Shown here in pieces: positions 1 to 28,084 of a stretch of 64,000 nt of DNA. The notes beneath the pieces are model-generated. The model was not told where the DNA came from and ran no database searches. It was given only the letters and a program-made list of their open reading frames with translations. Source of the DNA: Candidatus Babelota bacterium (GTDB lineage: Bacteria > Babelota > Babeliae > Babelales > Vermiphilaceae); the NCBI GenBank assembly GCA_049325595.1, contig JBMOLF010000001.1:32001-96000 (forward strand). Direction: 5' to 3'. Each line of letters starts with the position of its first letter. The stretch's first letter is position 1. Made by a program: the position numbers and the translations under genes.

Positions 1-179
1 TCAGTAGTAGTGCGGTAAATAACTTTAATGCGCGAAAGGCCGGTAATATAATGCTCAACCGATTCTAAAAGTGCTTGTATTTGTAATGGCCTATTAAATG
101 AGAAAATAATAAGATCAATATGGTTATTGGCACTGGCTATAAAACTTATACATACCATAACTAAAGCAAATATACGCAT
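1..179 (-). CDS. Partial (N-terminus only) glycosyltransferase-like protein with signal peptide; paralog of 2248..3132
   Basis: Hand translation MRIFALVMVCISFIASANNHIDLIIFSFNRPLQIQALLESVEHYITGLSRIKVIYR aligns with DMVIFSFDRPLQLYALLESVDTYVTGLETINVIYR; runs off the window edge; AAGGA upstream. Confidence 0.8.
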   Translation of the reverse strand, partial: MRIFALVMVCISFIASANNHIDLIIFSFNRPLQIQALLESVEHYITGLSRIKVIYRTTT

Positions 180-274
180 ATTCATTCCTTTTTTTATTGA
201 TGTAATGATTGGTTTATAAAATATTAAATTTTCATATACTAAGCAAATCAACCTCTTAAAAAAAGGACCGTTTA

Positions 275-1084
275 ATGAATCGATTCAAACTAAGTCTGCA
301 TATTGCATGTATGTTATTTTTTACTCTATCTACTTATACTAAACATTTTGTAATAGTTATTCCCTCTTACAACAATAAAGAATGGTATCAAAAAAATCTT
401 GATTCGGTTTTTATGCAACAACATACCGATTTTGAACTTGTCTATATTGCTGATTGTCCTACCGACGGAACTGACACTTTAGTTGAAAATTATTTTAAAG
501 CAATTAACTCACCAATTAAAACTACCTTAATTAAAAATAAAGAACGGGTAGGAGCTCTTGCAAATTTATATAACACTATAGCGCAATGCGACCCGAGTCA
601 CATAATTGTTACCCTTGATGGCGATGATTGGTTTCCTGATGAAAAAGTGTTAACCCACTTAAATCATATTTATTCCCACAACGAAGTGTGGATGACGTAT
701 GGCCAATCGTTGCACCACCCATCAAATCGAATTGGTGGAGCGCGTCAAATTCCCAACGAGGTAATAGCACATAATTCATACCGCTCTTATGATTGGGTTG
801 CAACTCATTTGCGAACATTTTACGCCGGATTGTTTCAACGTATTGCGGTAGAAGATTTAATGTATGAAGGAGAATTTTTTTCAGTCGCCTGGGACCTGGC
901 TTTTATGTTTCCTATGCTAGAAATGGCCGGCATTCATAGCTATTACATTGATCGCATTATGTATGTGTATAACTGCAATAATCCTATAAGCGATTTTAGA
1001 ATTGCCGCACAAAAACAAGCGCAATATGATCGCTATATTAGAACAAAAAAACCGTATGAACCATTAGAATATTTGTTCAATTAA
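275..1084 (+). CDS. Glycosyltransferase family 2 with N-terminal signal/anchor
   Basis: VIVIPSYN, DCPTDGT and LDGDD (DxD) GT-A motifs. Confidence 0.9.
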   Translation: MNRFKLSLHIACMLFFTLSTYTKHFVIVIPSYNNKEWYQKNLDSVFMQQHTDFELVYIADCPTDGTDTLVENYFKAINSPIKTTLIKNKERVGALANLYNTIAQCDPSHIIVTLDGDDWFPDEKVLTHLNHIYSHNEVWMTYGQSLHHPSNRIGGARQIPNEVIAHNSYRSYDWVATHLRTFYAGLFQRIAVEDLMYEGEFFSVAWDLAFMFPMLEMAGIHSYYIDRIMYVYNCNNPISDFRIAAQKQAQYDRYIRTKKPYEPLEYLFN

Positions 1085-1088
1085 ATTT

Positions 1089-1125
1089 AATAAGAGCTCG
1101 TCTAATCACGAGCTCTTATTTTTTT
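1089..1125. terminator. Intrinsic terminator between convergent genes
   Basis: AATAAGAGCTCGT-CTAATC-ACGAGCTCTTATT perfect stem followed by a T run. Confidence 0.8.
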
Positions 1126-1126
1126 G

Positions 1127-2092
1127 CTATCTATGCGCAACAATTTCATAGGAAGGCATAACATGCAATGATACATGGTGTGGTTGGCAATATACCAATG
1201 GATACTGACTTCTTATGGCATCCATAACTAAGGTGTGCCCTACAAATTTAAAATTATCACCCCACCCATGTAGTTGGCCTGAAATATAGCAAAGAGGTGC
1301 TTGAAAGAATTTTTTATCAACAATCATTTGTTGCGTGTTACATGATGATTCAGATAACGCAAACGTAGAAATAAATAAATCTGCACTCAAAGAAATTTCT
1401 GGAACCATAAATACCGGAATCAAATGAATTGCACCTTTTTCAAAAGATTCTGGTATGCGATCGTGTAAAATTACTTCTACATCAGGCATGGTAGCTTTCA
1501 GGAAAAAATATTGCAACGCTAATAATTCCGGCAAATCAATAAGATATAGGGTTGTTTCAGGCATTATCTGCTTAAAAACACTGGCCAAATTACCATAGCC
1601 ACTACCTACTTCCACAATTGAATTTATCGATTCATTAGGCCAGTACTCTAAAACTTTTGCTGCATAATATAAATGGCCTAAACAGTTACTTGAACAATTA
1701 AATTCTTTACAACAACGATCAAGCCCTAAAAAGTCAGACTCGTGAAAAGCTGATAGTTTTTCTTTGGTTTTTGCACTAATGCAATCACGCAAGTATAACA
1801 TTTCATACGATTGTACCACACTTATTCCTTGGCGAACCATGGTATTCCAAATACAATAATGTCGAGTAAAAAAACGATCGGGGTTGCCCAGCAAAATAGT
1901 TTTTACTTCTTGTTTGGTACTCTTCCAAATATCGTGGCAATAGTTACTTTCATGTTGATCAAGACCGGTTGTATGTAAAAAATTACAAAGATTTTTATAT
2001 TTTTCTTGCATATCATACCACAGAGAATCAACATAATTAGTTTGAATTTTAGCTACAAAAAGCAGCAATAATAAACTGATCTGTTTTTTCAT
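1127..2092 (-). CDS. Putative sugar O-methyltransferase (SAM-dependent) with signal peptide
   Basis: IVEVGSGYG, IDLPE and DLFISTFALSE motifs; start moved to ATG 2092 behind AAGGAG. Confidence 0.75.
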   Translation of the reverse strand: MKKQISLLLLLFVAKIQTNYVDSLWYDMQEKYKNLCNFLHTTGLDQHESNYCHDIWKSTKQEVKTILLGNPDRFFTRHYCIWNTMVRQGISVVQSYEMLYLRDCISAKTKEKLSAFHESDFLGLDRCCKEFNCSSNCLGHLYYAAKVLEYWPNESINSIVEVGSGYGNLASVFKQIMPETTLYLIDLPELLALQYFFLKATMPDVEVILHDRIPESFEKGAIHLIPVFMVPEISLSADLFISTFALSESSCNTQQMIVDKKFFQAPLCYISGQLHGWGDNFKFVGHTLVMDAIRSQYPLVYCQPHHVSLHVMPSYEIVAHR

Positions 2093-2247
2093 GACAAACT
2101 CCTTATTTGTGTTGATTAATTTGATGTGAACGAGTTTTACACAGTTGATTGATAATTGCAAAATATCTTTTATGATTTGCTTTTTTTATAAAGTTATGCA
2201 ACGGTATTAGCACCATTTCAAAACAACTTAAATCAAGGGGTTTTCTT

Positions 2248-3132
2248 ATGAAGCGCCAATTTTTACTCTCTTTGCTTTTTGTAAGCATAATGACATCGTG
2301 TCTTGCTCAAAAAGCAGATATGGTTATTTTTTCTTTTGACCGACCGTTACAACTCTACGCATTACTTGAATCGGTAGATACGTATGTAACAGGGCTGGAA
2401 ACGATTAATGTTATTTATCGTGCAAGTTCAGATGAATTTGCTTACGCATACGATTGTATACAGACTGATTTCCCACATGTAATATTTATAAAACAAGGTG
2501 CTAACCCTCGCCAAGATTTTAAGCCTCTTACTATACAGGCAGTAGAAAACACTCCTTCTCAATACATTATTTTTGCCGTCGACGACAATATCATAAAAGA
2601 TTACGTTGATTTAGAAGAATGTATCGAGTTGCTCAACCAAACAAATGCCTATGGATTTTACTTGCGACTCGGCTTAAATATATCCCATTGCTACACGCAA
2701 AACCAACCACAAATAATTCCCGCTCATCAACCAGTAAATAATGAAGTTTATGCATGGATATTCAAAGATGGTAGTTATGATTGGGGATACCCAAATACCG
2801 TTGATTTAACCTTATTTAAAAAAGAAGAAATTTTACCGACCATACGTACCTTATCATTTTATTCACCCAATGTATTTGAATGTGTATGGGCACAAAAAGC
2901 AGACGCTATTATGCAGCATATCGGTCTTTTTTTTGCTGAATCAAAAATTGTAAATCTACCACTTAATATGGTGCAAGAAGATTGGCATAATCGTAACCAA
3001 CAAGAACTTTTACCAGCTCAACAACTTGAGTTATTTTTCGCAGGTAAAAAAATAGATATTAAGCCTTTGTATAAAATTGCAAATCAATCACCCCATATGG
3101 AATATTGTCCTACCTTGATTGATCGTAATTAA
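2248..3132 (+). CDS. Glycosyltransferase-like protein (GT-A fold) with signal peptide
   Basis: IFSFDRPLQL and FAVDD motifs; lies in the GT cluster. Confidence 0.65.
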   Translation: MKRQFLLSLLFVSIMTSCLAQKADMVIFSFDRPLQLYALLESVDTYVTGLETINVIYRASSDEFAYAYDCIQTDFPHVIFIKQGANPRQDFKPLTIQAVENTPSQYIIFAVDDNIIKDYVDLEECIELLNQTNAYGFYLRLGLNISHCYTQNQPQIIPAHQPVNNEVYAWIFKDGSYDWGYPNTVDLTLFKKEEILPTIRTLSFYSPNVFECVWAQKADAIMQHIGLFFAESKIVNLPLNMVQEDWHNRNQQELLPAQQLELFFAGKKIDIKPLYKIANQSPHMEYCPTLIDRN

Positions 3133-3956
3133 AAAAGTTCTTTATGCGGTAATTTAGGATTAAAATAAATTACCGCTGTAGAAACATTTGAAATAGTGTG
3201 AATAAAAAAATCGGTACGTGCTAAAATTAAAACTTCGATGAGAACTTCTCGCCCTGCTTGCGTTCTATTAGATTGCTCGGGATTATAATGAATGGGAAAT
3301 CCATTTGTTGATCGACCAGCCGCAAAAGAAATAACCGGTTTATTAAGTGCAGTTTTTGCGGCCTGTAAAATTTCTTCTTCGTCTGTTGCTACAAAATATT
3401 GGTCTGCATCATACCTATTAGTGCAATCAAAAATTGTTTGTAGAGGAACATGCGGACGTTCAGAATTTTTATCAGTCCGTCTGATATGAATACCAATAGT
3501 TTTTTTACCTTTTATATGCTGTTCATAATAATCATCTACAACTTTTAATATGGATTCATTTACGTATATCCACTTATTAATGAGCTCATTAATTTCTGCT
3601 CGTTGATGGCTACACGGTGGTATAGCGATCAAATTATGACCATCTTTATCAAAATAACTGTTGTGAACATAATCACCATTTTCATAATTCTGCTCAGAGA
3701 CTGGTTTAAAAAAACATGGCCATGCATTTGCATTATTTTTACATTCAACATCACGTTCATCAAAATACAATGAACTCTTATCCCAATATATCACCGGAAC
3801 TTTATTATTTTGCTCGCACCATATTAAATTATTAAGCGCACCAAAAAAAGATGAAAAAAAACCACACCCATGTTGACCAATCACAAACTTTTCATGTGTT
3901 TGAGCAATAAGAGATAAAGAACATATAAAACTAATTAATAAAAGTTTTTTTAACAT
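3129..3956 (-). CDS. NodZ/alpha-1,6-fucosyltransferase-like (GT23/O-FucT-like) protein with signal peptide
   Basis: GFFSSF, IGIHIRRTDK, FVATD and HTISNVS motifs. Confidence 0.8.
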   Translation of the reverse strand: MLKKLLLISFICSLSLIAQTHEKFVIGQHGCGFFSSFFGALNNLIWCEQNNKVPVIYWDKSSLYFDERDVECKNNANAWPCFFKPVSEQNYENGDYVHNSYFDKDGHNLIAIPPCSHQRAEINELINKWIYVNESILKVVDDYYEQHIKGKKTIGIHIRRTDKNSERPHVPLQTIFDCTNRYDADQYFVATDEEEILQAAKTALNKPVISFAAGRSTNGFPIHYNPEQSNRTQAGREVLIEVLILARTDFFIHTISNVSTAVIYFNPKLPHKELF

Positions 3957-4027
3957 ATATCCCCTTTTTTAACACCAAATGGATTAAAAAAGAGGATATA
4001 ATAATTACAAAACATAAGGCAATGTTA

Positions 4028-5005
4028 TTAATACAGGCATATAAGCGCAGGATTTACATATATTTTGTCATATCCTTTGCAAATCATTGATGCATGGAGT
4101 GTCGTATGCTCACATACAACGGGTAAATCATAACCACTATTCGGTATGAAAACTAATGGTAATGGTCTTTGATCACTATTGATAAGTAATGTATAAATGC
4201 GGTAATAAAGATGATTAGTCGCCATGTTCTTATTGAGTATCTGATCACTAAGATGTTCAAGATCTTTGGTAACATACCCACAATACCAACAATCTTTTAA
4301 TGCATTTCGTTTATACAATGCAATACCACCAAAAGCAGAATACACTTTTTGTAAAGGTAAGCTGGGTGCAAATGCAATTGGCTGCTCAAGGCGAATACGC
4401 CAAAATTCTTCACCCAATAATTCAGGACCAAGAGGAAATTGATCATCCCGATAAGCAAAACGATCGTAATGGTAATGATCACCATTTACGCCATTTGCCG
4501 CAATACAATCCCATTGCTCAGTACAATTGAATGATGCAATTACATCGTTTACCTGCCAACCTATCCTAAAATCAAGATCTGTCATTATAATATAGTTATA
4601 ATCCGCAAACAGATCGCTCATTGCTTGTTTGAGCACTTGATTGCGCGCATAGGCAATCAGTTCCATACGACACGGTGCTTTATCGCGCAAAGCATGGCTT
4701 TTGGTCCGATTACTTAACTGCTGGTCAGAAAGATATTCAGATATGATAGTTACTCTTGGATTTTTAATCATCCATGCGTTTAATACATCTAACGTGTTAT
4801 CAGTTGAATTGTTTTCATAAATGATAACCTGATAATCCTTAAAATAATCTCCTAATTGCTCAATCTTTTGCATCATATTTGGCAAACATGATGCAATATT
4901 TTTACCAACACCTAAAATTAATAGTTTTTCATTTTTTGGATTAATAGCTGCGTTCAGGTACCCAACAAAACAACCAAATATAAAAATAAATTTGAAATAG
5001 TTCAT
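4028..5005 (-). CDS. Glycosyltransferase resembling the cryptococcal mannosyltransferase (CAP59/GT69-like) family
   Basis: IIYENNSTDNT, IAYARN, DLD, YDRFAYR, VYSAFGGIALY and CEH motifs; signal peptide. Confidence 0.65.
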   Translation of the reverse strand: MNYFKFIFIFGCFVGYLNAAINPKNEKLLILGVGKNIASCLPNMMQKIEQLGDYFKDYQVIIYENNSTDNTLDVLNAWMIKNPRVTIISEYLSDQQLSNRTKSHALRDKAPCRMELIAYARNQVLKQAMSDLFADYNYIIMTDLDFRIGWQVNDVIASFNCTEQWDCIAANGVNGDHYHYDRFAYRDDQFPLGPELLGEEFWRIRLEQPIAFAPSLPLQKVYSAFGGIALYKRNALKDCWYCGYVTKDLEHLSDQILNKNMATNHLYYRIYTLLINSDQRPLPLVFIPNSGYDLPVVCEHTTLHASMICKGYDKIYVNPALICLY

Positions 5006-5006
5006 G

Positions 5007-5807
5007 TTAATCCTGTTGCGCATATTGTTTTAATTGCTCTAGAATGTAGGCTGCTTGCGCATGATTTTTGCACCCATGCAGCATGTAATAATGTATATCT
5101 GGTTGCGTATACCCATGCTCGTAAGGAATTCTATTTTCGCGCCATGCTTGTATGCTTTCAAAATATGGATCATAAACTGGCAGATATTGAGTCGCACCAT
5201 ATTTCCAAAGCAAAACATTTAATATAGTTTCATCAAAGTTTGGCGCCTTACGACCATATTTTAAGCATGCCTCGTACCATTCTTGTAAAAATGCTCGGCA
5301 AGTGTGTGAAAATAGAATATGCGCATGCACATACGGCATTGATTTATGGGTAACTCCCATTAACTTCATAATCTGATATTGATTTTCAGGATCTTTCGGA
5401 TGTAAAGGACATAGCGGATAGTCTTGTATGGTTTTACATACATCAAATAAGGTATCGACTCCTTTATTTAAAATATCATCTGCTTCGATATAGACCCCAT
5501 AATCCAGCCCTGATTCTAAAATAATACGCACTTTAATAAAAAAAATATGTACTTTGCTTAAATCAACATCAAGTCTACGTTTTATTAAACGAGGATATTG
5601 TGCCGTATCAAAAGGAATTTCGGCATTAATACCATACGCAATTACCGGTCGTGTTGAAAATTCATGTGCACTATCAAGGGTAACTTTAAGCAAATCAAAA
5701 TAATTACTGGTAGCAAAAGTAACAAAACCTTCGGATGGTTGTGTATGCGCATGCATATGCATACCAAGTACACATAAAATAATTACTATATATTTTTTCA
5801 TGTTCAC
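5007..5807 (-). CDS. Putative glycosyltransferase with signal peptide
   Basis: K..IILES...GVYIEADD and DETILN(VLLWK) GT-like motifs; cluster context. Confidence 0.55.
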   Translation of the reverse strand: MNMKKYIVIILCVLGMHMHAHTQPSEGFVTFATSNYFDLLKVTLDSAHEFSTRPVIAYGINAEIPFDTAQYPRLIKRRLDVDLSKVHIFFIKVRIILESGLDYGVYIEADDILNKGVDTLFDVCKTIQDYPLCPLHPKDPENQYQIMKLMGVTHKSMPYVHAHILFSHTCRAFLQEWYEACLKYGRKAPNFDETILNVLLWKYGATQYLPVYDPYFESIQAWRENRIPYEHGYTQPDIHYYMLHGCKNHAQAAYILEQLKQYAQQD

Positions 5808-5816
5808 TCTTTCTGT

Positions 5817-6596
5817 TTATTCAATGCCTAATAAATGAACAAGCTCATTCAATTGCTGTTCATAGTAATCATAGGGACGCAACATATGGCAATCTGTGTA
5901 ATATCCTGATGATACTAATTGTGCATCATAACCCCACCATCCACGGTCGACACGTTTATCAACATGGTGACCGAGCTTTACTAATCGACCCGTTTGTGCA
6001 TGCCATCTATTGAGCGTATGATACAGTATTTGTTGATCAGTCGTCCAACCAAGTCCTAATGCATACCATTGTTTGATAATTTCAGGAATTTGATGTACTG
6101 AATCAACATTGAAAATCTCTTTAAATATGCTTCCTTTAGCAACATTGTAGCACATAGGATATTCGCACATATCTTGTCCTGCAAAAGCACCATCTTTGAA
6201 GGTAACAAAACAATCATCAGGAATATCTTTTACACTCTTTGCAAAATATTCTTTGCTTAAAGGAATCATATCCATATCAGAAATTATACATACTTCATCT
6301 TCAAAATAAGCCGGTGCTAATAACCGAATTACCTGCGCTTGAAAAGAAGTTGGAATACCTTCTATGGGTTCAAAACGAATTACCTCACCAAGAGTTTCAT
6401 CAACTACTACATTAGCTGGTGCAACCAAAAATAGAGTAGGTTGTACTCCTACTAGTTGTTTCCACGTTTTGGCAACAATCGGCCAAAATGGTAAATACAT
6501 AGGATTTGCATCAGATGCGATAATAACCCGGTCTATATGCAACGCTTGTATGCAAGGGGCTATTAACAATAGCCCCATAAATAATATGCTTTTCAT
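5817..6596 (-). CDS. Putative glycosyltransferase with signal peptide
   Basis: IISDMDMIPL (DxD), WTTDQQIL and DCH motifs. Confidence 0.55.
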   Translation of the reverse strand: MKSILFMGLLLIAPCIQALHIDRVIIASDANPMYLPFWPIVAKTWKQLVGVQPTLFLVAPANVVVDETLGEVIRFEPIEGIPTSFQAQVIRLLAPAYFEDEVCIISDMDMIPLSKEYFAKSVKDIPDDCFVTFKDGAFAGQDMCEYPMCYNVAKGSIFKEIFNVDSVHQIPEIIKQWYALGLGWTTDQQILYHTLNRWHAQTGRLVKLGHHVDKRVDRGWWGYDAQLVSSGYYTDCHMLRPYDYYEQQLNELVHLLGIE

Positions 6597-7312
6597 TACT
6601 TTTCACCTAATTGTAGTGGCGCATTGGCAAAATTAACGTATAAATCATCAAAGCCACCAAACTTGGTAATAAAGGTAAAACCTTTTGATTCCAATATTTT
6701 TTGTACATCAGTAGTGTTTTCATTATTCTCAACACTGATTACAAAAATAGGTATGTGATCAAAATCAATCGATTTAATAATATCAAGCTCAGAACCTTCT
6801 GTATCGATTGATAAATAATCAACACGCGTAATGCCATGCTCATCCATAGTTTTATTAAAGGTAATTACGGGTATATCAATGATGGTGTAATAGCTGCCTG
6901 GCGTTGTTGCTAAATACAAGTTCACCACTTTCCACCGATGTGGTTCTTCATCAAAAAATTTCTTGAGACCACTTAATTCTTCTAATTTTGCTATATCAAC
7001 AAATTGCATCATGCCTTCTGTTCCTGCCATGGCAGCTTGTATGCACGTACAATTACGTGCGGCTTTTAAATCAGCAAAAATTCGGGGAACTGGTTCGATG
7101 CATAACCCTTTCCAACCAAGCTCTTTTTCAAAAAAATAACTATTGCTAAAGCAAACACCATTATAAGCACCTATTTCAACAAACGTGCCGTTGCGCATAT
7201 TCTTAAAATAATGTTCATTCACGAACTTATCTTGGCCAACTTGGCTATAATATTCTGCAACACATGATGAAGCTATAAGCAATAAACTTATTACTATTTT
7301 TTTCATAGACAA
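6596..7312 (-). CDS. FkbM-family methyltransferase with signal peptide
   Basis: YSQVGQD, FVEIGAYNG..SNS, IEP and LSIDTEGSE motifs. Confidence 0.9.
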   Translation of the reverse strand: MSMKKIVISLLLIASSCVAEYYSQVGQDKFVNEHYFKNMRNGTFVEIGAYNGVCFSNSYFFEKELGWKGLCIEPVPRIFADLKAARNCTCIQAAMAGTEGMMQFVDIAKLEELSGLKKFFDEEPHRWKVVNLYLATTPGSYYTIIDIPVITFNKTMDEHGITRVDYLSIDTEGSELDIIKSIDFDHIPIFVISVENNENTTDVQKILESKGFTFITKFGGFDDLYVNFANAPLQLGEK

Positions 7313-7318
7313 TCTTTC

Positions 7319-8611
7319 TTAAGCTGCAGCAGCCGCTATTTGTGTTTGCTGTTGAGCAATCAAGGATTTGCGATCTTCATAGAATTTAAGATTTTTCTTT
7401 AAATGTTCCATCTCTGGTCTATTTTCAAGTGCACAACGAACACCTTTTTCTCCCATGTCATATTCACCGATATACCAGGAAGAAATACCAACCACATCGT
7501 GACGCTCAAAATCATAAATGTTTTTATCTACAAACAATACATCACTAGTTGGATACGGTTGTTCACATGCACGGTGAGCAAAAAGATATGCCAGTGCATG
7601 CTCTCCTTTTGCCAAATAATGTTGAGCAATTTTTACCAATGGTTCTGTTCGGCATGATCTATAAGAATATGCTTTTAAATAATATTCAAGCGCTTTGGCC
7701 CAGGTATATTCGTCTTTTTCTTCTTTTTGCGCAAGCCATTCAGTAATTTGCGCTAAGCGATACCAGGTAACAAAATTCTCTTCGTACCAGCCAGGCAATG
7801 TGCTACGGTGTTTATAGTATTTATGTGCATTCTCAAGATCACCTAAACATGCATACGTTTGCGCAAGGTAAAATGTAGTACGCGGATCATTAGGGTGCTC
7901 ATTATGATATTTGAGTAATAAATCTAAATCACGTTTCCAACGAGCCATAGATTTATCGGCACCAGTTTTTGATGGCCGCAAATCAAAATATATTTCACCA
8001 GGCACACGATACGGAGTTCCTTCCATAATTGTTTCATGCACAACCCCACCAAAACGTAACTGGGCACTCTTGCGCAATAAACGTTGGGTATAAAAATCAA
8101 TGCTTGGATTCATGATACGCACTAAATAAGACGATTCTATAATATTATCTTTGTGCTCTTGGCAATAATCCATTAATGCCGGCATATTAACCATGTACCA
8201 CTCAGCATCGGGCATCATTAAAAACACTGCATTAGGGAATTTTTCTTCTGCAAGTTCTAGGCCTCTATTACGCGATGTTGCAAAATCAACAAAAGGTTCT
8301 TGAGCAATAGCTGCATTAGCAATACCATTTTCGGTAAAAAATTCTTCTGCTTTTTCAATTGTTTTATCAGTCGATCCCGTGTCGAATACAAAAAAACCAA
8401 GCGCACTTTTTTGTTCTTCACTTAATCCAACAATATATGATTCTAGGGTTGGTTTTATTACCGGTTCTTCGTCTTTGACCATAAGAACAACAACAAGCAT
8501 TAATTGATCGTACGATTTAAAACTATTCATAAATCGATTAGTTGCCCGTAATGTAAGCGGCACAAGGGCCAATAAGGTAATTAAAGACCAAATTCGTAAT
8601 AATATTTTCAT
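7319..8611 (-). CDS. GT2 glycosyltransferase fused to TPR repeats
   Basis: MVKDE, DTGSTDKT, DFATSRN, DAE and GVVHE motifs, followed by TPR-like FYLAQTY repeats. Confidence 0.85.
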   Translation of the reverse strand: MKILLRIWSLITLLALVPLTLRATNRFMNSFKSYDQLMLVVVLMVKDEEPVIKPTLESYIVGLSEEQKSALGFFVFDTGSTDKTIEKAEEFFTENGIANAAIAQEPFVDFATSRNRGLELAEEKFPNAVFLMMPDAEWYMVNMPALMDYCQEHKDNIIESSYLVRIMNPSIDFYTQRLLRKSAQLRFGGVVHETIMEGTPYRVPGEIYFDLRPSKTGADKSMARWKRDLDLLLKYHNEHPNDPRTTFYLAQTYACLGDLENAHKYYKHRSTLPGWYEENFVTWYRLAQITEWLAQKEEKDEYTWAKALEYYLKAYSYRSCRTEPLVKIAQHYLAKGEHALAYLFAHRACEQPYPTSDVLFVDKNIYDFERHDVVGISSWYIGEYDMGEKGVRCALENRPEMEHLKKNLKFYEDRKSLIAQQQTQIAAAAA

Positions 8612-8632
8612 CTTCTACTTTCCTTTTTTTTG

Positions 8633-9406
8633 TTATTCGTAATATGCGTAAATATCTCCCCACAGCAAATTGCCAATTTTGGGCAACTGTTGACTTCGTA
8701 GATCTTGTAATGTTGTTAATAACTCAGATGCTGATAGCCAGACAGAACTTACAAATTCAGTACTTTCTGCTATTACAAAATTAAATTTGGTATACCCCAG
8801 TTTTTGCAATCGTTCTAAACAGTTACGACTGTTATGCTCAGTTTCGCAGGCATACTCAAAAGAAATAAGTTGAATAGGATAAGATAATCCTTTAAGAACT
8901 TCATACTCAAAGTTTTCTACATCGATTTTGCAAAATACCGGCGTGCCATGTTTTTGTATCATATGATCTAATGTTGCAATGGGCACTTGAATAACTGTAT
9001 CCCACTTAAAACTGCCACAGCTACCATCAGAAAAGCGCGATTGCTCAATCCACTCACGTGAAAATGTTGAAAGGGTATCAGCATCGCACTGATAAAAAGG
9101 TAATACTCCTTCTTTTTCACCAATGGCAAGAGGCTCAAGCAAAATATGATCATTATTATTAAATCTATTTTTTAGATACCTTTGTAAATGTGGCTGCGGT
9201 TCAAAACAGACAACACGTGCACCTAAACTTGTCAACGATGCTGCTTTTTTCCCTTGGTGTGCACCAATATCAAATACAAGGTCACCGGTTTTAATAAATG
9301 GCTTTAAAAACTCAGAATATCCTATTGGATCAAATTGATCTTTGATGGTGTATGAAAAAATTATTGATGTGCTAAATAGTAAAATCCAAAGATATGATTG
9401 CTTCAT
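8633..9406 (-). CDS. FkbM-family methyltransferase with signal peptide
   Basis: VFDIGAHQG, FEP and KIDVENFEYEVLKG motifs. Confidence 0.9.
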   Translation of the reverse strand: MKQSYLWILLFSTSIIFSYTIKDQFDPIGYSEFLKPFIKTGDLVFDIGAHQGKKAASLTSLGARVVCFEPQPHLQRYLKNRFNNNDHILLEPLAIGEKEGVLPFYQCDADTLSTFSREWIEQSRFSDGSCGSFKWDTVIQVPIATLDHMIQKHGTPVFCKIDVENFEYEVLKGLSYPIQLISFEYACETEHNSRNCLERLQKLGYTKFNFVIAESTEFVSSVWLSASELLTTLQDLRSQQLPKIGNLLWGDIYAYYE

Positions 9407-11447: not shown

Positions 11448-11451
11448 TAAT

Positions 11452-19363: not shown

Positions 19364-20806
19364 TCATGTTACCCGAGTTATAGTAATTGCAGCACTTATT
19401 CCTGTGCCAAGCGAAACATCGGTTATGGACACCAATGAAAATGCTGTTGTACTGTCGGTAGCAAATTGAACACTAAATTGATCACCCGCAGTAGCTAAAT
19501 AAAGAAAACTTTGTGCATTAAGACGCCCATAGTTAATAGCACCAACCGGACGTAAAGTCCCCGCATTAGTATAGCTTCCTGCTATAGGCGAACCATTAAC
19601 AATTACACGAGTAAAAACATTACCCGGAGTATTAGTATTAAAACTAAAATTAAGCACATAACTTATTTTATAAAGTCCTGTTGCTGGACATACAAAAGTT
19701 GTATTGTTATTTGTTTTTGTCCAACCATTTGGTGCAATACTATTAAGCGGAAAAAATATGGTAACCCAGGTAGATTGAGCAACGGTATTTTGACCAGAAA
19801 AAGAATATGAGCTCAAATAATTTGCCGTTGTTGGAGCAGCACCCGTATTGCCCGTCAAACCTTGGGGGCCTATGGCTCCTGTACTTCCCTGCAAACCTTG
19901 TGGACCAGTAATACTCATTCCTGTTGCTCCGGTTGAGCCCTGAGGGCCAACATTACCTGCTTCTCCATTATTTCCGGTAAAACCAGTAGCCCCTATTAGC
20001 CCGGTATTACCAGTAAAACCCGTAAAACCTATTGGTCCTGCATTTGCCTGTGCTCCGATAGCGCCATCAGTTCCCGTAAAGCCTTGAGGCCCTGTATTGC
20101 CGGTGAATCCAGTAAAACCAGTGGCTCCTGTTAAGCCTGTATCACCGGTAGCACCTTGTTGACCAATAATACCAGCAAGTAATTGAAACCCTTGTGCCCC
20201 GATTGCTCCTTGTTGCCCATTATTTCCGGTAAAACCAGTAACACCCGTAGTACCTTGATCACCTTGCATTCCGGTAGCACCAGTCACACCCGTAGCGCCA
20301 GTTGCACCTGGTAAACCATCTGGACCCGTATTGCCAGTAATACCAGTAACGCCCTGAGCACCTAGTGCACCATTATTTCCTGTTAATCCTCTTTCACCTG
20401 GTGCGCCAGTAAATCCTGTAGTACCTGTTACACCTTGTACGCCAGATATTCCCATAGCACCGAAAGTTCCGGTACTTCCTTGTGGACCTATAGCCCCCGT
20501 GTTTCCCGTAGGACCGGTTTGGTTATTTAGTTCTCCAGGCACACCAGTTGGTCCTTGCGGCCCCGTGTTACCTACCACACACTCACAACCTGACTGGTAA
20601 CACGCTTTGGGTATTATTATTCTTCCACATACAACTAAGTCTCCACCAATTTTCATGCACTGCTTAACAATCAAATTGCTATATGTTTTTAAAATTTTTT
20701 TAACAATATTATTAGATATTTCATTTTCAGCTAATGTCGTGTTAATTAATAAAAAATAACCGGCATACACACAAAAATTTAAGCTCTTTGATAACCACAA
20801 TTTCAT
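19364..20806 (-). CDS. Secreted collagen-like protein with BclA/C1q-like head
   Basis: GGDLVVCG neck; 246-aa collagen region; ANYLSSYS head. Confidence 0.9.
   Translation of the reverse strand: MKLWLSKSLNFCVYAGYFLLINTTLAENEISNNIVKKILKTYSNLIVKQCMKIGGDLVVCGRIIIPKACYQSGCECVVGNTGPQGPTGVPGELNNQTGPTGNTGAIGPQGSTGTFGAMGISGVQGVTGTTGFTGAPGERGLTGNNGALGAQGVTGITGNTGPDGLPGATGATGVTGATGMQGDQGTTGVTGFTGNNGQQGAIGAQGFQLLAGIIGQQGATGDTGLTGATGFTGFTGNTGPQGFTGTDGAIGAQANAGPIGFTGFTGNTGLIGATGFTGNNGEAGNVGPQGSTGATGMSITGPQGLQGSTGAIGPQGLTGNTGAAPTTANYLSSYSFSGQNTVAQSTWVTIFFPLNSIAPNGWTKTNNNTTFVCPATGLYKISYVLNFSFNTNTPGNVFTRVIVNGSPIAGSYTNAGTLRPVGAINYGRLNAQSFLYLATAGDQFSVQFATDSTTAFSLVSITDVSLGTGISAAITITRVT
19835..20572 (-). repeat. 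Collagen Gly-X-Y coding repeat (246 codons)
   Basis: GXY periodicity with interruptions NNQT, LLA, ANA and IT. Confidence 0.9.
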
Positions 20807-20808
20807 AA

Positions 20809-22602
20809 TTAAGCTACCCTTCTAATGGTATATGAAGCACCAAGAGCTGTACCCAATCCGGCTGCAGTGAGCACACGTATATATACCGAATTGGCATTGG
20901 TTGCACCAAATTGAAGCTGAAAAAAATCATTCACTGCTGCAGAAACAATAAAGGTTTGCGTTAAGAGATTGGTAAGGGTACCAGAATTTGAACCATTCCA
21001 AGAAACAGCTACCACGCTTCCCGGAACGATCGTCGTTCCATTTTGCAATACACGAGAAAATGCTGTTTGACTGGTAGTAGATATCGGTGCACCAACTGTT
21101 ATTGTGTAAGTCATTTCATAAATACCTGCTTGATTACAAATAAAGGTATCTGCAGTTTTTGTCCAACCTGCTGGCACAACCGCATTTAATTCAAATTGAA
21201 CACCTGTGTAAGCATTTTGCGGAGCGGTAGCAGATGTTTGCGAATAAGAACTAACATAATTTGCCGGTTCTAGAGCAGTTCCAGTGGGACCTGTATTACC
21301 AACAGAACCCGTAGCACCGGTGTTACCGGTAGTACCTTGAATCCCTGTGTTACCCGTTGCTCCTTGTGGACCAGTATTTCCCGTTTGTCCCTGTAACCCC
21401 GTTGGCCCGGTAAAGCCGGTAGAACCTCTCTCGCCTTGGGGGCCAGTAGCTCCCGTTGCACCAATATTTCCTTGTGGACCGGTAAAACCGGTAAAACCCG
21501 TTGGCCCGGTAAAGCCAGTAACTCCTTGTTGACCAGTAAAACCAGTTGACCCCTGAGCTCCAGCGGCACCAGCTGCTCCAGCTGGTCCTTGTGGCCCGGT
21601 AAAACCTGTATTGCCCGTAGCTCCCGTAAATCCAGTTGGCCCAGTAAACCCCGTCGCTCCGGTAAAGCCAGTGGCGCCTATCGGCCCGGTATTTCCTTGA
21701 ATACCAGTAAAACCCGTAGCTCCTTGTGCTCCTAATGAACCGGTATTTCCTTGAATACCTTGCAGGCCTTCTGCACCAGTGGCGCCTTGTGCACCTTGCA
21801 AGCCTGTTGGTCCAGTATTACCGGTTGCTCCTGGATCACCTTGAACTCCGGTAGCACCGGCTGGTCCGGTAGCTCCTTGTAGACCAGTAGCACCCTGAAG
21901 TCCGGTTGGTCCGGTGTTTCCGGTATTACCTTGCGGCCCTGGGTTGCCGGTAGTTCCCGTTATGCTAAAACCTGCTGGACCGGTGTTTCCTTGTGGACCA
22001 GTTGCACCGGTGATTCCAATAGCACAATCAGTTTGACTAGGCTGTGCTAATAAATTTTGATTAATAATGCGCCCACACACTATTAAATCACCACAAATTT
22101 TTACCTTATTGCGCACACACAAATTATTTAAAATTTTGAGCGCTTTATAACGGTCTATTACTGAATCATACTTATAATGGTTTTGTAGCCATTTTCCGTT
22201 GTTATCAAATTCGACATATATACATTGTTCGTGATCAGCAATGAATTCAATTTTTATGGTATTATCTATCAAGCAACCTTGGTAATTAAGATCTGTATGT
22301 GGTATTAAGCAAAAGGCAATACCATGTTCACCAAAACTCGAATCGATTATTCTTTGGTTATATTTGATTAACGTAATATGAGCATCAGATTCTCGTTGCT
22401 CTATTCCAATTAATAAATAGGTATCATTATCTATGTTGATAATTTTCCATAGAGTGTTATCTATACTAAAAGGTGTTTTTATATTCTCTTTATCTTCTGT
22501 TTTTATAACGACAAAACCATCACAGTTATCAATCGTAGGAGAAGAAATAACACAATCATTTAGGCCCAATAAAACAAATAATAGTATCTTTTTTAACTTC
22601 AT
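20809..22602 (-). CDS. Secreted collagen-like protein with BclA/C1q-like head
   Basis: Signal peptide [21 protein letters not shown] neck; 248-aa collagen region; ANYVSSYS head. Confidence 0.9.
21274..22017 (-). repeat. Collagen Gly-X-Y coding repeat (248 codons)
   Basis: 82 GXY triplets with one IT interruption. Confidence 0.9.
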
Positions 22603-22630
22603 TACAAACACTCATCTCTTTTTTAAAAAA

Positions 22631-23167
22631 TTATCGCTCTATTTGTGTTGCACAGGGCGTTACATTGCATACCGGATCGTTAATTATTTTTCCACATACA
22701 ATTAAATCACCACCAACACGCATACAGCGTCTAATATTTAATTGATCAAACGTACGAGTGATGGGATTTGCATATTCAAAGCAACTGCGGAACGCAATAT
22801 CTATAACTTCTTGAACCCTGAGATTGTCATTATTATCAAATACCAACCCAACAATGCTTGAGCCATTTTTAAAATAGCCAATAAAAAGGTCGTTATTTGG
22901 AAGTAATTCCCATAACAAAAGATCGATAATATATGGTGCTTTAAAACATATTAGATCATTATATTCTTGTACATCACTAATGTTTGGGCGATTTTTTTTA
23001 AACATGAAATAAGAATGATCAGCACCAGGAGCCACAATGCAATACAATGACTGATTGCTTGGCAATGCTATAGTATGCTTAATAACTTCTGTTTGTATAA
23101 AATTAATGAAAAAAGAAAGCATGCATAAGTACACACTTTTTATGAGGCTTTTTTGCTTCATTGCCAT
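22631..23167 (-). CDS. Secreted protein ending in the GGDLIVCG neck motif, with no collagen or head
   Basis: C-terminus FDQLNIRRCMRVGGDLIVCGKIIND matches the necks of neighbouring collagens. Confidence 0.7.
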   Translation of the reverse strand: MAMKQKSLIKSVYLCMLSFFINFIQTEVIKHTIALPSNQSLYCIVAPGADHSYFMFKKNRPNISDVQEYNDLICFKAPYIIDLLLWELLPNNDLFIGYFKNGSSIVGLVFDNNDNLRVQEVIDIAFRSCFEYANPITRTFDQLNIRRCMRVGGDLIVCGKIINDPVCNVTPCATQIER

Positions 23168-23359: not shown

Positions 23360-24760
23360 TTATGCTACACGTCTAATAAGAAAACTTGTCGCTTTACCAA
23401 CATTAGTAAATGTTGTAGTAGGTACAAATAAGGTCGTAGCTTCGTTCGCATTTGCTTGCACGACTAATGTTGTTCCAACCGTGCAATTTACCAAAAGAGT
23501 ATTTGATTGTAATATACCGAGATTATTAGCACTACCTGCAAAATAATTACCCGTGCTGTATGATGCGGTAGGAGCTGAGCCGTTAACTAAAAGACGAAGT
23601 CCTATACTAATATCATTACCTGCACCGCCAAGGTTAAAATATCCCGAATAGGAAACTTCATAAAGTCCTGCAAGTTGGCAAGTAAAGGTAATATTATCGG
23701 CTGTTGTCCAACCATTATTAGCAATATTAGCTGAAGGATAAGAAAGACTTGTCCAGGTATTAGCTGGTATGTTAATTGTTAGCGCTGCTGTATTATATCT
23801 ATCAATATATCCCTGCGGGGAATCTAATGAACCGGTATTGCCTTGTGGACCTTGAGGGCCAGTATTACCCGTTGATCCTTGTATACCTTGAGGCCCTGTT
23901 GCTCCTGTAGCACCCGGTAATCCCTGTGGACCAGTATTACCCGTTGATCCTTGCAATCCTTGAGCGCCGGTATTTCCTGTAGCACCCATTAATCCTTGTG
24001 GCCCCGTGTTACCTGTTGTACCTATGCCAGTATTCCCTTGTGGACCAGTGTTACCTTGTGGTCCTGTTGCACCTGTTGAACCCAAAACACTTAACCCACT
24101 AGCACTAATTGGTGAACCGTTAATTTCTGTCACAAAAATACTAGTAGCATTAATTGTTTGGGCATTAATAATATTGCTGTTGAGAATATTATTATTAATA
24201 ACATTAATATTAGCAATATCACTGTTAATGCTGGTGGCATTAATAATTTGTGAGTTAATTATTTGCGAATTAAGAGTAATAATATTAGCAGTATTTGCAT
24301 TCAAATTATTTGTGGTAACACTGTCAGCGGTAACTTGGCCACGCACCACAACATCACCACCAACACGTATTGAATTTCTTACACAAAGGGAATCGATAAT
24401 TTTACAACCACGAGTTCCTATATATTGAGCATCTATTACATTTGAACCTGAATTAAGATCGCTTTCATATTCTTCCAGCGCTTTTGCAATCTCATTATAG
24501 GTTTTTTGATCGCACCCCTGCATAGAGCTGAGTAAATCTACGGCGTCTTTTACTGTTTTTTTTGCATTTTCAATGGGCATACATGAATCACATTCAAGAT
24601 TTAACACTTGCTGTTGTAGTTCCGGTGCCATACCATACAATTTTTTTAATGCGTCAACAAGGTAGGGTGTAATAACCGCATAAGGCATTTTGCTGCTTGC
24701 AGAGACATTATTCATTAGCGCTAATAACAATAACAATAAATATTTTTTTGGTCGCTTCAT
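23360..24760 (-). CDS. Secreted collagen-like protein with Asn/Ile pentapeptide stalk and BclA/C1q-like head
   Basis: [17 protein letters not shown] neck; (NxxxI)n repeat; about 28 GXY triplets; SPQGY...[13 protein letters not shown] head. Confidence 0.85.
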
Positions 24761-24869
24761 TGTTCTCCCCTTTTAAAAGTAAGCTTTAGGTTAGAATAAA
24801 AAAAAATAATCGCCTCGATCAATGGTTAAAAAACTATTCAACATCAATTAAATGTGCAATTAACCTTAT

Positions 24870-26165
24870 TCAATGAGTAGATGACACTAAATCAAACGGT
24901 AATAGTTTTTTTGCTTTTTCAAATCTATTTAGCAAATCTTGTTTGTCTTGTGCACCCAGATGAATAAGTCCATAGCGATAGCTTTTGCCATCTTGTAATA
25001 CGTCAGACAATAACATTCCTGGTTTTACATCTGCATAAAAACGTGCATCAGGAAATTGTCTAAAAAAATGAGCAATCTGATCTTGGGTAGGAACTTGTAA
25101 AACTTTTTTGTTTTCAAAGGTGCGTAAAACACAACTTGCAGCTATTGCGTGGTTTCCCTTCTTTCTAAAAATAACTGGTTTTTTGCCAAGTGCGATATCA
25201 AGCATCAACTGATAGGTATTAAAACCATCAACTTTTTCGTATAAATCAGCAAACTGGGCTGCCATGCGTGGATTAATTTCAATAATACCTATTTTGTCAG
25301 TTTCGGGATTATACATAAACTCGATATTGAACATACAGTTATCTAAATGCATAGCTTTAACAATTGTTAAAGCTATTTCTCCCATTCGATTTTGTACTGC
25401 TTGTGGCAATGATGAAGGATATTCAAATCGCGCAAAAGATATGGTGCCAGGAAACATAATTGAATCAACAATGCCAACAATCTCGATTTGCCCCTGATAA
25501 CAATACCCCTCAAGCGTTACTTGGACCCCTGAAAGATATTCTTCCACCATAACTGCACAGCTATCAATTTCACTTCCGCCAAATGTTTTTAAAAACCAAT
25601 TAAAATGCGAAAGAAAATGGGATGGTAATAATGCTTGTCTTAACATTTCTTGTAATTGCTGGTAATTCGTAGCTTTATTAGCACCCACTGAATAATAAGA
25701 TTTTACCGGTTTTACAAAAACTGGATACGAAAATCGAGCACCATCAGCAGCTTGAATTGAATCAAGATCGTTAAACAAAGTGAATTTTGGAGTTGCATGT
25801 GGCACATATTTTTCTTGAATTAACCGAGCATTGTATTTGTGCTGGCATTGGAGCAATGCCGCCGGACGAGCTCCAACCAAATTACAATAATGCCCTACAA
25901 TGCTTGCATAGATCGAACCAGGATAATCGTCCGTGCTCACAATACCATTAACATTGTTCGATCTTGCAAGCAATAATAAAGAATCAATTATCTGCGAGGG
26001 ATTTGTTGCAACAAAATCATCCACAACACCATTTGCAAGAATGCGCTCAAATGAATCAACTTTATAATCATGAAACAGAATGTGGTAATTATCTTTGGTT
26101 GATAACTTAGATAACTCAACCCGATCACGAATAGATGGACAAATAACAAAAATGGTATGCTTCAT
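24870..26165 (-). CDS. ATP-grasp domain protein (putative amino-acid/carboxylate-amine ligase)
   Basis: YPVFVKP, MVEEYLSG, FNIEF and IIEINPR motifs; ATG 26165 behind GGGGAG. Confidence 0.8.
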   Translation of the reverse strand: MKHTIFVICPSIRDRVELSKLSTKDNYHILFHDYKVDSFERILANGVVDDFVATNPSQIIDSLLLLARSNNVNGIVSTDDYPGSIYASIVGHYCNLVGARPAALLQCQHKYNARLIQEKYVPHATPKFTLFNDLDSIQAADGARFSYPVFVKPVKSYYSVGANKATNYQQLQEMLRQALLPSHFLSHFNWFLKTFGGSEIDSCAVMVEEYLSGVQVTLEGYCYQGQIEIVGIVDSIMFPGTISFARFEYPSSLPQAVQNRMGEIALTIVKAMHLDNCMFNIEFMYNPETDKIGIIEINPRMAAQFADLYEKVDGFNTYQLMLDIALGKKPVIFRKKGNHAIAASCVLRTFENKKVLQVPTQDQIAHFFRQFPDARFYADVKPGMLLSDVLQDGKSYRYGLIHLGAQDKQDLLNRFEKAKKLLPFDLVSSTH

Positions 26166-26239
26166 CGACTCCCCTATCTTGTTATAGATAGGGTAATCAG
26201 ATTGCATACCAAATTAATAGAGTTCTAAACAGAAGATAA

Positions 26240-28084
26240 TTATTCGACCGTTACTGATTTTGCCAAGTTACGTGGTTTATCAATTGGTCGTCCTAACTCT
26301 TTGGCAACTTGATACACGAAAAATTGCATTAACCCAGTCATGGCAAGCGGTGCTAACAATGATTTTGTTTTAGGAAATAAAAATATCGTATCGGCTAATT
26401 CAATTAACTCACGTTGCCCTTCAAATGCAAATAATACGATGTGGCCACCACGCGCTTTTATTTCTTGTGCATTGGCAACAAGTTTCTGATAAATAAGTGC
26501 ATCAAGATGCGAGAATAAGAAGATTGGTGTTTGATCATCGATTAACGCAAGAGGACCGTGCTTTAATTCACCTGCCGGATACGTTTGCGCAAAAATATAA
26601 GAAATTTCTTTCAATTTAAGCGCAGCTTCTTGTGCTAATGGATAACTTACATGTCTGCCCAAAAAAATTGCTTTTTTAAAGTGCGCATATTTTGGTGCAT
26701 CTTCTTGTGCAATACGCGTTTTATAATTTTCTATACTATTTTCAAGTAATTCTGCCGCTACTAATAAATCTTCTTGCGCACTGACCAATTGCTGATGATT
26801 AATAATACCTTTATGGTATGCAATAAAATGCGCAAACCAATATAATGCTGCAACTTGTGTTGAAAATGCTTTAGTAGACGCAACAGCAATTTCATGACCA
26901 GCTTGCGTAAGCAAAAAACCACCTGCTTCGCGTACCATCGTGCTTGAAGCAACATTGGTCAATGCAATAGTTTTCATATTCATTGATTCAATCAAACGCA
27001 ATGCCTCAAGCGTATCGGCTGTTTCACCTGATTGAGAAATCATAACATACAATGATTTAGGCTCTGAGAAAAAATGATTATAACGAAACTCTGAAGCTAA
27101 ATGTACGGTGGTTGGCAGCATACAAACTTGTTCAAAGAAAAATTTAGCAATCAGGCCTGCATGCCACGAAGTACCGCATCCTACTAAATGCACACGCTCT
27201 ATTTCTTTAAGCTCTTGTACAGTAAGTCCTAAATGATCAAAAATAGCATCTTCAAGTTCATGCAAAAAACGTACGGTTGAATAAATTGCATTTTTTTGCT
27301 CATAAATTTCTTTGAGCATGTAGTGCTCATAACCCATTTTTTGGCTGCTTTGCCAATTTACTTTTATTTCCTGCACGTGAGGAACTAATGGTTTACCGGT
27401 AAAATCATAGAGCTCGATGATATCTTTTTTTACTAAAGCAAAACTTTCATCGGGCAAAAATATTACTTTATTAGTTTTGTCTGCAAATGCGAGCACGTCT
27501 GATGCAATAAACATCTCACCATCGCCAATACCAATACATAGTGGTGAACGACGACGCACCACTACAAGGGTGTCTGATTTTTGCTGTGCCAATGCCAAGA
27601 ATGCATATGCACCATCAAGTCTGTTTACCAAGTCAGTTACCGCTGCCTTAAAAGTATTGTGTGAAATAAGAAGCGATTCAAAAAGATGGGCTATAGTTTC
27701 GGTGTCAGTCTGTGAATGAAAAACATGACCAGATTCTTGCAGCTGCTCACGTAATTCGTGATGATTTTCAATAATACCGTTATGAACAATTGATATGGTT
27801 TTTTGACAATCAAATTGGGGATGAGCATTTTCGGTTGATGGCACCCCATGGGTAGACCATCGTGTATGACCGATTCCCAAAAAACCATCTATCGGATGTT
27901 GACTAAATTGAGAAGTTAAATTTTCAAGTCTTCCTATGGCCTTTGCATAAAGAAGCTGATTGTCTTGAGAGCTTAAACAGGCAAACCCTGCCGAATCATA
28001 CCCTCGATATTCTAAGCGACTAAGGCCTTCCATAACGAAAGGCCTACTATTATTCTTACCAACATACCCAATGACACTACACAT
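26240..28084 (-). CDS. glmS: Glutamine-fructose-6-phosphate transaminase (isomerizing)
   Basis: MC start, LEYRGYDSAG, GHTRW, SQSGETADT and PRNLAKSVTVE. Confidence 0.98.
   Translation of the reverse strand: MCSVIGYVGKNNSRPFVMEGLSRLEYRGYDSAGFACLSSQDNQLLYAKAIGRLENLTSQFSQHPIDGFLGIGHTRWSTHGVPSTENAHPQFDCQKTISIVHNGIIENHHELREQLQESGHVFHSQTDTETIAHLFESLLISHNTFKAAVTDLVNRLDGAYAFLALAQQKSDTLVVVRRRSPLCIGIGDGEMFIASDVLAFADKTNKVIFLPDESFALVKKDIIELYDFTGKPLVPHVQEIKVNWQSSQKMGYEHYMLKEIYEQKNAIYSTVRFLHELEDAIFDHLGLTVQELKEIERVHLVGCGTSWHAGLIAKFFFEQVCMLPTTVHLASEFRYNHFFSEPKSLYVMISQSGETADTLEALRLIESMNMKTIALTNVASSTMVREAGGFLLTQAGHEIAVASTKAFSTQVAALYWFAHFIAYHKGIINHQQLVSAQEDLLVAAELLENSIENYKTRIAQEDAPKYAHFKKAIFLGRHVSYPLAQEAALKLKEISYIFAQTYPAGELKHGPLALIDDQTPIFLFSHLDALIYQKLVANAQEIKARGGHIVLFAFEGQRELIELADTIFLFPKTKSLLAPLAMTGLMQFFVYQVAKELGRPIDKPRNLAKSVTVE

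Follow-up and report, generated by a model that had tools for sequence, protein, structure and literature searches.

Thr-rich collagen genes beside signal-bearing glycosyltransferase genes in a Babeliales genome: a candidate for exported collagen O-glycosylation

The window analysed here is a stretch of 64,000 nucleotides (G000:C1:32001-96000) from the genome of a Candidatus Babelota bacterium (G000), which comprises 1.29 Mb on 24 contigs and is 95% complete. The window carries a block of glycosyltransferase (GT) and methyltransferase genes next to genes for secreted collagen-like fibres. One of the enzymes, a family 2 glycosyltransferase followed by tetratricopeptide repeats (GT2-TPR, at 7319), is our candidate for initiating the glycosylation of these collagens. 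Babeliales (Dependentiae) are a group dwelling inside protists. A Dependentiae origin, as supposed in a preliminary description made from the sequence, is borne out by the named relatives of GT2-TPR: the best one belongs to Ca. Dependentiae bacterium Noda2021 (locus L118, 83% identity), and the other named matches are mostly from Dependentiae/Babeliales. Noda2021 has been cultured in Vermamoeba vermiformis, where host mitochondria surround its cells (PMC8812299).

That the GT/methyltransferase block abuts co-oriented secreted genes had been noted before, and the genes are indeed found in this arrangement. Eleven GT and methyltransferase genes occupy positions 1-9406, all with a predicted signal peptide (called throughout by a hydropathy rule of this analysis, not by SignalP). 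The genes at 275..1084 and 2248..3132 are on the plus strand, the remainder on the minus strand. Family evidence over the cut-off exists for the GT2 glycosyltransferase at 275..1084 (Pfam; five copies in the genome), the NanM-like putative sugar O-methyltransferase at 1127..2161 (TIGR04371, 55.7 bits, cut-off 44; likely start Met24) and the FkbM-family methyltransferases at 6596..7312 and 8633..9406. Four genes (5007, 5817, 2248 and 1-251) have no Pfam match. The first gene, of which the window edge leaves the 5' end (1..251, part of G000:C1:31310-32251), and the gene at 2248..3132 are paralogues without a family name and encode probable GT-A enzymes; this call rests on a DD motif (AVDD is invariant in the 2248 family) together with fusions with GT2 and GT6 domains, and the 2248 family has no sequence match in the PDB. 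A FUT8/NodZ-like probable fucosyltransferase is encoded at 3129..3956 (Pfam E 0.007 and 0.01, below cut-off) and a CAP59/Anp1-like GT-A glycosyltransferase at 4028..5023 (CAP59/GT2/Anp1-like matches, DxD at 149). The proteins from 5007..5807, a GT8/GT77-like probable glycosyltransferase (ESM Atlas feature score 0.97), and from 5817..6596, a probable GT-A glycosyltransferase (DxD at 107; Atlas scores 0.99 to a cluster without name and 0.94 to GT8/GT77), both have viral nearest Atlas clusters. GT2-TPR itself lies at 7319..8611.

The nine genes that follow (9473-24760) are all on the minus strand and all open with a signal-peptide-like segment. Seven contain collagen repeats, one encodes a head only (18573..19181, BclA_C/C1q-like, no PDB match as a single sequence) and one a neck only (22631..23167). 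Three fibres start with a delta-60 beta-propeller: 9473..11374 continues with 20 triplets and a BclA-type head, 16585..18441 with 16 triplets and a BclA_C head over the Pfam cut-off, and 11452..14136 with 31 triplets and a differing C-terminal domain of 385 amino acids, which has no known family and no PDB sequence match and is the exception among the heads. A Cys-rich neck is common to five proteins and is also found in the upstream array. It precedes 131 triplets (about 110 nm) in 14151..16448, 73 in 19364..20806, 82 in 20809..22611 and 28 in 23360..24760, where the neck has Asn/Ile repeats; the head is BclA_C-like in 19364 and BclA-type in the other three, which begin with an N-domain. For the N-domain of 20809 no homologue appeared in a search that missed even known paralogues and hence was insensitive. 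At 0.286 nm per residue the seven stalks of 20/31/131/16/73/82/28 triplets correspond to about 14-112 nm; these lengths rule out three-gene cassettes of matching length among the nine genes.

The whole locus is twice as large as first noted and is cut by the window. Directly before base 1 (G000:C1:7713-31317; L001, L002) we find 13 more collagen genes and seven more signal-bearing GT/methyltransferase genes, including GT2-GT10, GT6, GT10, GT2 and two class I methyltransferases. The full order is 13 collagen genes (C1:7713-24335), 18 GT/methyltransferase genes (C1:24444-41406) and then the nine genes described above, so that the block stands between 13 and seven Thr-rich collagen genes. The gene order is the same in the same-genus genome G001, and in Noda2021 L118 eight other block genes occur in the same order, together with collagen genes. 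Further on in the window, beyond the part first described, lie three more short secreted collagen genes with BclA/C1q-like heads (33897..36677, minus strand), and in total G000 has 30 open reading frames (ORFs) with at least six Gly-X-Y triplets. Because hairpin-plus-T-run sequences are seen by eye between some of the collagen genes, these appear to form several transcription units. The idea of a single operon was dropped; a promoter and terminator scan performed no better than chance.

The seven stalks of the window have 381 triplets, with Thr in the Y position of 220 and Gln in 92, as the preliminary description had indicated. The commonest triplets are GNT (78), GAT (52), GPQ (46), GFT (25) and GST (20); GPT occurs just 13 times. 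Across relatives Thr makes up 42-98% of the Y positions, and the commonest X residue varies by lineage (Leu, Ser, Pro, Asn or Ala). Glycosylated Thr is said, on the basis of studies of vent-worm cuticle collagen, to stabilise a triple helix without hydroxyproline.

The expectation of C1q/BclA-like heads is supported by profile and by model. Heads of suitable length and likeness (62) were taken from the window and from related loci, without the longer or clearly different C-termini; at E<=0.01 Pfam BclA_C is matched by 48 of the 62 and C1q by 13. A model of the 16585 head, with a predicted local distance difference test score (pLDDT) of 95, matches the C-terminal domain of F-BclA best (template modelling score, TM, 0.80; E 1.6e-10), followed by BxpB, BclA and C1q. 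Three copies of the 20809 neck with its first triplets were modelled as a homotrimer with a score of 0.55 versus 0.00 for the best of three controls; in a calibration with two copies only, 20 of 30 solved pairs and one of 23 single chains came up to the mark. The runs show at least 88% contact agreement and a pLDDT of at least 67, and likeness to solved collagen helices may account for the pass. Each fibre would accordingly be built from signal peptide, propeller or neck, Gly-X-Thr/Gln stalk and, mostly, a head of BclA/C1q fold.

The likeness to Bacillus BclA and F-BclA thus covers the collagen stalk and the trimeric C1q/TNF-like C-terminal head (PDB 9h38, 1wck, 8d02), and the head-only C1q-fold gene recalls BxpB/ExsF, BxpB being head-only as well. 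However, in place of the exosporium leader/ENA hook there is a signal peptide and then either a delta-60 propeller or a Cys-rich neck, and the stalks are rich in GNT/GAT/GPQ and not in GPT (13/381). BclA is reported to be O-glycosylated, with a GT gene near f-bclA (parts of PMC12357932).

GT2-TPR (minus strand) is weak in Pfam, and its assignment to the SunS/ThuS/GmaR type comes from other evidence. In a search with a profile of 16 homologues the matches were SunS (E 1e-15), GmaR and the ThuS entry 7msk, and the model (pLDDT 91), which shows a GT-A domain ahead of TPRs, is closest in fold to ThuS and SunS. When aligned to SunS, D77-T-G, D135-A-E137 and H192-E193 are invariant in the 16 homologues; we take these to be the nucleotide- and metal-binding motifs. 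The earlier proposal that this enzyme is the best candidate for a protein O-glycosyltransferase is strengthened by these matches.

Its distribution follows that of the collagens. Among 40 relatives 13 have both, two only GT2-TPR, two only collagens and 23 neither, after a match in G020 to the TPRs only was dropped. In a sample of 151 genomes of the phylum with a completeness of at least 85%, both are present in 46 (including G000), only GT2-TPR in six, only collagens in seven, four of which rest on a single match, and neither in 92, which leaves 13 discordant genomes. The pattern recurs within five families (f1, f3, f6, f12, f13), and the gene next to GT2-TPR is a collagen in G001, G010, G012, G013, G015, G021 and G029. 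A quick tree of 79 GT2-TPR loci splits 17 rows from the 62 others (Shimodaira-Hasegawa-like approximate likelihood ratio test, SH-aLRT, 99). The smaller clade comprises 16 members from Legionellales/Gammaproteobacteria/Coxiellaceae and one from Oligoflexia; the named members of the larger one are mostly Babeliales, and a single Chlamydiae genome nests within it. A Thr-collagen is encoded within 8 kb in 32/62 cases of the Babeliales clade versus 15/17 of the Legionellales clade, in the latter within about 1 kb. Phage and plasmid collections gave GT2-TPR matches of just 22-30% identity, and the best Bacillus match has no collagen ORF within 6 kb.

From profile, model and co-occurrence we consider it quite likely that GT2-TPR is the Thr O-glycosyltransferase of the collagens. 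With similar likelihood it would add the first sugar to the stalk threonines, probably GlcNAc by analogy with SgtA. Several points speak against this assignment. The related genomes in the co-occurrence counts are not independent samples, which makes the P values of these counts too favourable, and six genomes have GT2-TPR and no collagen at E 1e-5 (in G008 collagens appear at 1e-3). In the Babeliales clade 30 of 62 copies lack a collagen gene within 8 kb; in 14 of them the flanking sequence is short. Thr in the Y position is weak evidence alone, because it is common in bacterial collagens in general (31.6%; PMC8968730).

Among the known systems SgtA/BclA3 is closest in logic. SgtA has the same GT-A plus TPR layout and is reported to transfer beta-O-GlcNAc from UDP-GlcNAc onto Thr of BclA3 collagen peptides (parts of PMC7157674), and in both systems the enzyme gene adjoins a Thr-rich collagen gene. 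The SgtA system belongs to the spore exosporium and is made in sporulation, whereas the system described here is that of a Babeliales cell, has about 30 collagen genes and combines a signal-bearing enzyme with signal-bearing acceptors; the likeness to SgtA is one of domain layout. SunS, ThuS and Listeria GmaR (PDB 7msp, 7msk, 22ao, 7x9r) are the best profile and fold matches and also have a GT-A domain before TPRs, but identities are only 14-17% and the export signal is found only here. The acceptors of SunS, ThuS and GmaR are peptide Cys/Ser or flagellin, and these enzymes are cytoplasmic. In the linkage of the enzyme gene to its presumed acceptor gene GT2-TPR resembles the SgtA/SunS/ThuS/GmaR class. 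The system probably works like SgtA/BclA3, yet outside the exosporium family, and the location of catalysis is possibly new.

Some GT2-TPR loci of other organisms deserve mention. In uncultured Legionellales/Gammaproteobacteria (L134-L188) a GT2-TPR without signal adjoins a secreted Thr-rich collagen whose head is not of the BclA type, and a membrane protein which by eye resembles a GT-C transferase often comes next; this cassette is apparently undescribed. The nested locus from uncultured Chlamydiae (L168) has a signal-bearing GT2-TPR, more signal-bearing GT-like genes and five short collagens. Near GT2-TPR in G012 (C2:13331-14518) and G010 (C1:350313-352563) there are genes for a WecB-like epimerase (by eye), an NDP-sugar epimerase and a GT4-like protein (by eye), all with signal-like starts.

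The other genes of the block behave differently. The genome-wide collagen test among block genes covered GT2-TPR, the 275 GT2 family and the 2248 family. In the 40 relatives the 275 family is found with collagens in 11 genomes, alone in 10, absent from four with collagens and absent together with them in 15; the corresponding numbers for the 2248 family are 8, 9, 7 and 16. These two families, present in 21/40 and 17/40 relatives, hence do not track collagen, and the linkage of GT block and collagens expected in relatives stands for GT2-TPR but is not supported for these two families. In addition, the collagen-free genomes G003 (C1:929000-975000), G011 (C1:1187000-1225000) and G019 (C52) harbour long clusters of signal-bearing GT genes. 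For both reasons the block looks like a family-wide glycan toolkit, which in G000, G001, G013 and G018 is joined to collagen genes; in G013 and G018 GMD, GT2 genes, collagens and GT2-TPR lie in one locus.

These data also allow for two separate systems, in which GT2-TPR puts a single sugar on the collagens and the other 17 enzymes build a glycan on lipid or other proteins that replaces lipopolysaccharide (LPS). The behaviour of the two families fits such a division, as do the large GT clusters with ManC/GMD/Fcl in collagen-free relatives and the genomes G010, G015, G021 and G029, which have GT2-TPR and collagens but no adjoining GT block; for SgtA, too, no extending enzyme was found, as far as parts of PMC7157674 go. 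However, in G000 and G001 the block stands between two collagen arrays, and G007, G008, G009, G013, G017 and G018 keep GT/FkbM genes with GT2-TPR and collagens. We regard this division as rather unlikely. That the other GTs and the five methyltransferases extend and methyl-cap the collagen glycan, with a toolkit that also serves non-collagen acceptors, seems to us neither more nor less probable than its opposite.

The ATP-grasp gene (24870..26207, no signal peptide) and glmS (26240..28084; TIGR01135 over cut-off), which lie upstream on the strand of the collagen array, had been counted as part of the system. They prove to be a housekeeping pair: the ATP-grasp gene is found in 8/41 genomes, in all eight beside glmS (with one gene between in G002), and four of these eight have no collagens. 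In G018 the pair lies about 700 kb away from the collagen locus. We therefore treat the cytoplasmic GlmS and its neighbour as the flank of the locus.

The most unusual trait of the block is the N-terminus of its enzymes. Bacterial nucleotide-sugar glycosyltransferases are normally cytoplasmic, and lipid-linked donors are used outside. All 18 block enzymes have a Sec-type signal-like start, 17 by the hydropathy rule and one by eye, in which basic residues lead into a hydrophobic stretch, mostly followed by a cleavage-like site of small residues; no twin-arginine (Tat) motif or lipobox was flagged in them. A signal-like N-terminus is present in 59/62 GT2-TPRs of the Babeliales clade versus 0/17 of the mostly Legionellales clade. 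In the latter at least six of eight collagens with complete start carry a signal and the enzyme does not, which points to glycosylation before export, the usual arrangement; the Babeliales thus appear to have added a signal to the enzyme. As a control 143 of 255 prepared proteins were scanned and 42 from normally cytoplasmic families were picked. Five of the 42 were positive, namely one clear false positive and a deacetylase, a uridine-kinase-like protein and two GH1 proteins whose signals look real; none of the proteins of translation or replication and none of the chaperones was positive. The histone-deacetylase-family, uridine-kinase-like and GH1 proteins of G000:C15 (L103, L104) are candidate host-directed enzymes.

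Signals of this kind extend to donor synthesis. The gmd and fcl products of G000 pass NCBIfam cut-offs with models that begin at residues 20 and 27, and signal-like starts are also seen in a second GMD-like protein, Gmm, UDP-glucose dehydrogenase (UGD) and RmlB-like and RmlD-like enzymes. GalU, two phosphomutases and GlmS have none. Among 21 genomes with full start the best GMD copy carries the extension in 14 (G030 was dropped as incomplete), and G003 and G013 hold forms with and without it. Two more signal-bearing clusters (G000:C10:36349-48167 and C9:72218-80443) comprise UGD, Gmm, two GMD, Fcl, RmlB-like and RmlD-like enzymes, GTs and methyltransferases. In GlmU (G000:C12:28747-30303 and L113) an in-frame signal-like stretch lies before what is probably an internal start; this is seen in G000 and G001 and not in G009, G010 and G018, and a dual start is possible.

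MetK was found in one of 41 genomes and not in G000. In G000 we also found no ManC, LpxC, phosphoglycosyl transferase (PF02397), Wzx (PF01943) or Wzy/ligase (PF04932), in a search that did not include ABC-type export and STT3. Without MetK and ManC, S-adenosylmethionine (SAM) and GDP-mannose would have to be supplied by the host, no matter on which side of the membrane the enzymes work. The families GT2, GT6, GT10, FkbM and GMD/Fcl are typical of Wzx/Wzy, capsule and oligosaccharyltransferase (OST)-type clusters; here, however, the lipid-linked machinery named above was not found and the enzymes bear export signals.

Since enzyme and acceptor both bear Sec-type signals, we think that transfer probably takes place after export, in the periplasm or a host compartment, straight from nucleotide sugars and not from a lipid-linked glycan. 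Host SAM and GDP-mannose would serve as donors, and exported GMD/Fcl, UGD and rhamnose-type enzymes encoded elsewhere would convert donors in place. We lean slightly towards the full statement, that the collagens are O-glycosylated post-export in one of these places, mostly on host-derived donors. That a whole nucleotide-sugar glycosylation line (donor conversion, initiation, extension and methylation) is exported with the collagens and run on host substrates is put forward as a tentative and somewhat doubtful extension.

Some observations make us cautious about post-export glycosylation. The hydropathy rule is positive for 688 of 1232 ORFs of G000, membrane proteins included, and false positives were seen; in Chromulinavorax 44% of proteins have predicted signals (parts of PMC6561590). 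GlmS, GlmM and GalU are cytoplasmic, so that UDP-sugars would have to be exported or be provided by the host. The absences in G000 are provisional, as the genome is 95% complete and in 24 contigs. The two GT families that do not track collagen and the collagen-free GT clusters weigh in the same direction, and no membrane or lipid anchor was seen in the nine fibre-region proteins.

NAD(P)H, SAM and NDP-sugars normally occur in the cytoplasm. The N-terminal segments could be uncleaved anchors or unused, with glycosylation on the cytoplasmic side before Sec export and donors imported by EamA/DMT carriers, of which G000 has four EamA members. The signal-less GT2-TPRs of the Legionellales clade beside signal-bearing collagens, and the absence of the GMD extension in 7/21 genomes, would agree with this. 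On the other hand, the hydrophobic stretch comes after basic residues and before cleavage-like small-residue sites, an order that under the positive-inside rule places the catalytic domain outside. The extensions vary in sequence yet keep their character across many genera, and neither Tat motif nor lipobox was flagged. A conventional location is in our judgement improbable.

Alternatively, enzymes and fibres could be effectors secreted into the host. The GTs would then act on host glycans or proteins and remodel them, and the fibres with their C1q heads would be released lectins or scaffolds instead of a coat of the cell. Ankyrin, WD40, deacetylase and kinase-like proteins of G000 carry similar signals, two secretins and an ATPase of type II secretion system/type IV pilus (T2SS/T4P) type are present, and the fibres show no anchor; ankyrin proteins of Babela are thought to be host-secreted (parts of PMC4378268). 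However, the tight coupling of GT2-TPR and collagens, phylum-wide and in the Legionellales clade, argues for the bacterium's own collagens as acceptors, and we hold an effector role to be very improbable.

If the collagens are instead glycosylated after export, the fibres would form a glycosylated surface layer of an LPS-free cell, which may serve host binding, uptake or protection. Parts of the phylum papers (among PMC6561590, PMC4776705, PMC12172432 and PMC4378268) report no LPS genes in Babeliales, and the main texts of these four mention neither collagen nor glycosyltransferases. In the literature we found no description of collagens or exported GT/GDP-fucose enzymes from Dependentiae/Babelota, with most subscription papers and supplements outside the scope of the search. 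A lineage exporting such enzymes with their acceptors would break the cytoplasmic rule and expose a new host dependence, and the fibres would tell what covers the LPS-free surface. An entire exported line would be for bacteria what the Golgi or a giant-virus factory is elsewhere, with a glycosylated collagen layer in place of the lost LPS. As the system is present in about a third of the sampled phylum genomes (46/151) and in the cultured Noda2021 (L118), these ideas are open to direct tests. The engineering of prokaryotic collagens would profit as well from a collagen O-glycosyltransferase that is specific for Thr and has many substrates in nature.

The preliminary description had likened the locus to Mimivirus. 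In parts of PMC10117803 and PMC9614988, Megavirinae, amoeba parasites with a fibrous coat, are described with fibril clusters of 6-33 NDP-sugar, GT and methyltransferase genes. Such genes are clustered here too, in one locus in G013 and G018 and in three in G000, and the two orphan GTs (5007, 5817) have the viral nearest Atlas clusters mentioned above. The likeness holds for this gene-cluster logic but not for the chemistry: Mimivirus collagens are of the Gly-X-Lys type and hydroxylysine is glucosylated by L230 (parts of PMC9614988), whereas here Lys is outside the six commonest Y residues; lysyl hydroxylase was not searched for.

Further collagen-related genes were noticed outside the window. 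Delta-60 propeller genes with (almost) no collagen adjoin collagen genes at G008:C11:10428-16700, G018:C1:1510000-1518200 and G007:C1:242142-248259 and possibly encode a base or anchor layer. G000:C23:33223-38267 together with C1:146-1039 encodes six short collagens with another head family and stalks of 18/18/18 and 19/19/20 triplets; a junction of C23 with C1 is suggested, because the matching genes appear contiguous in G001. Finally, G000:C22:28849-31770 (L004) encodes a secreted GH81 beta-glucanase that contains two CBM56 domains and a short Gly-X-Thr linker.

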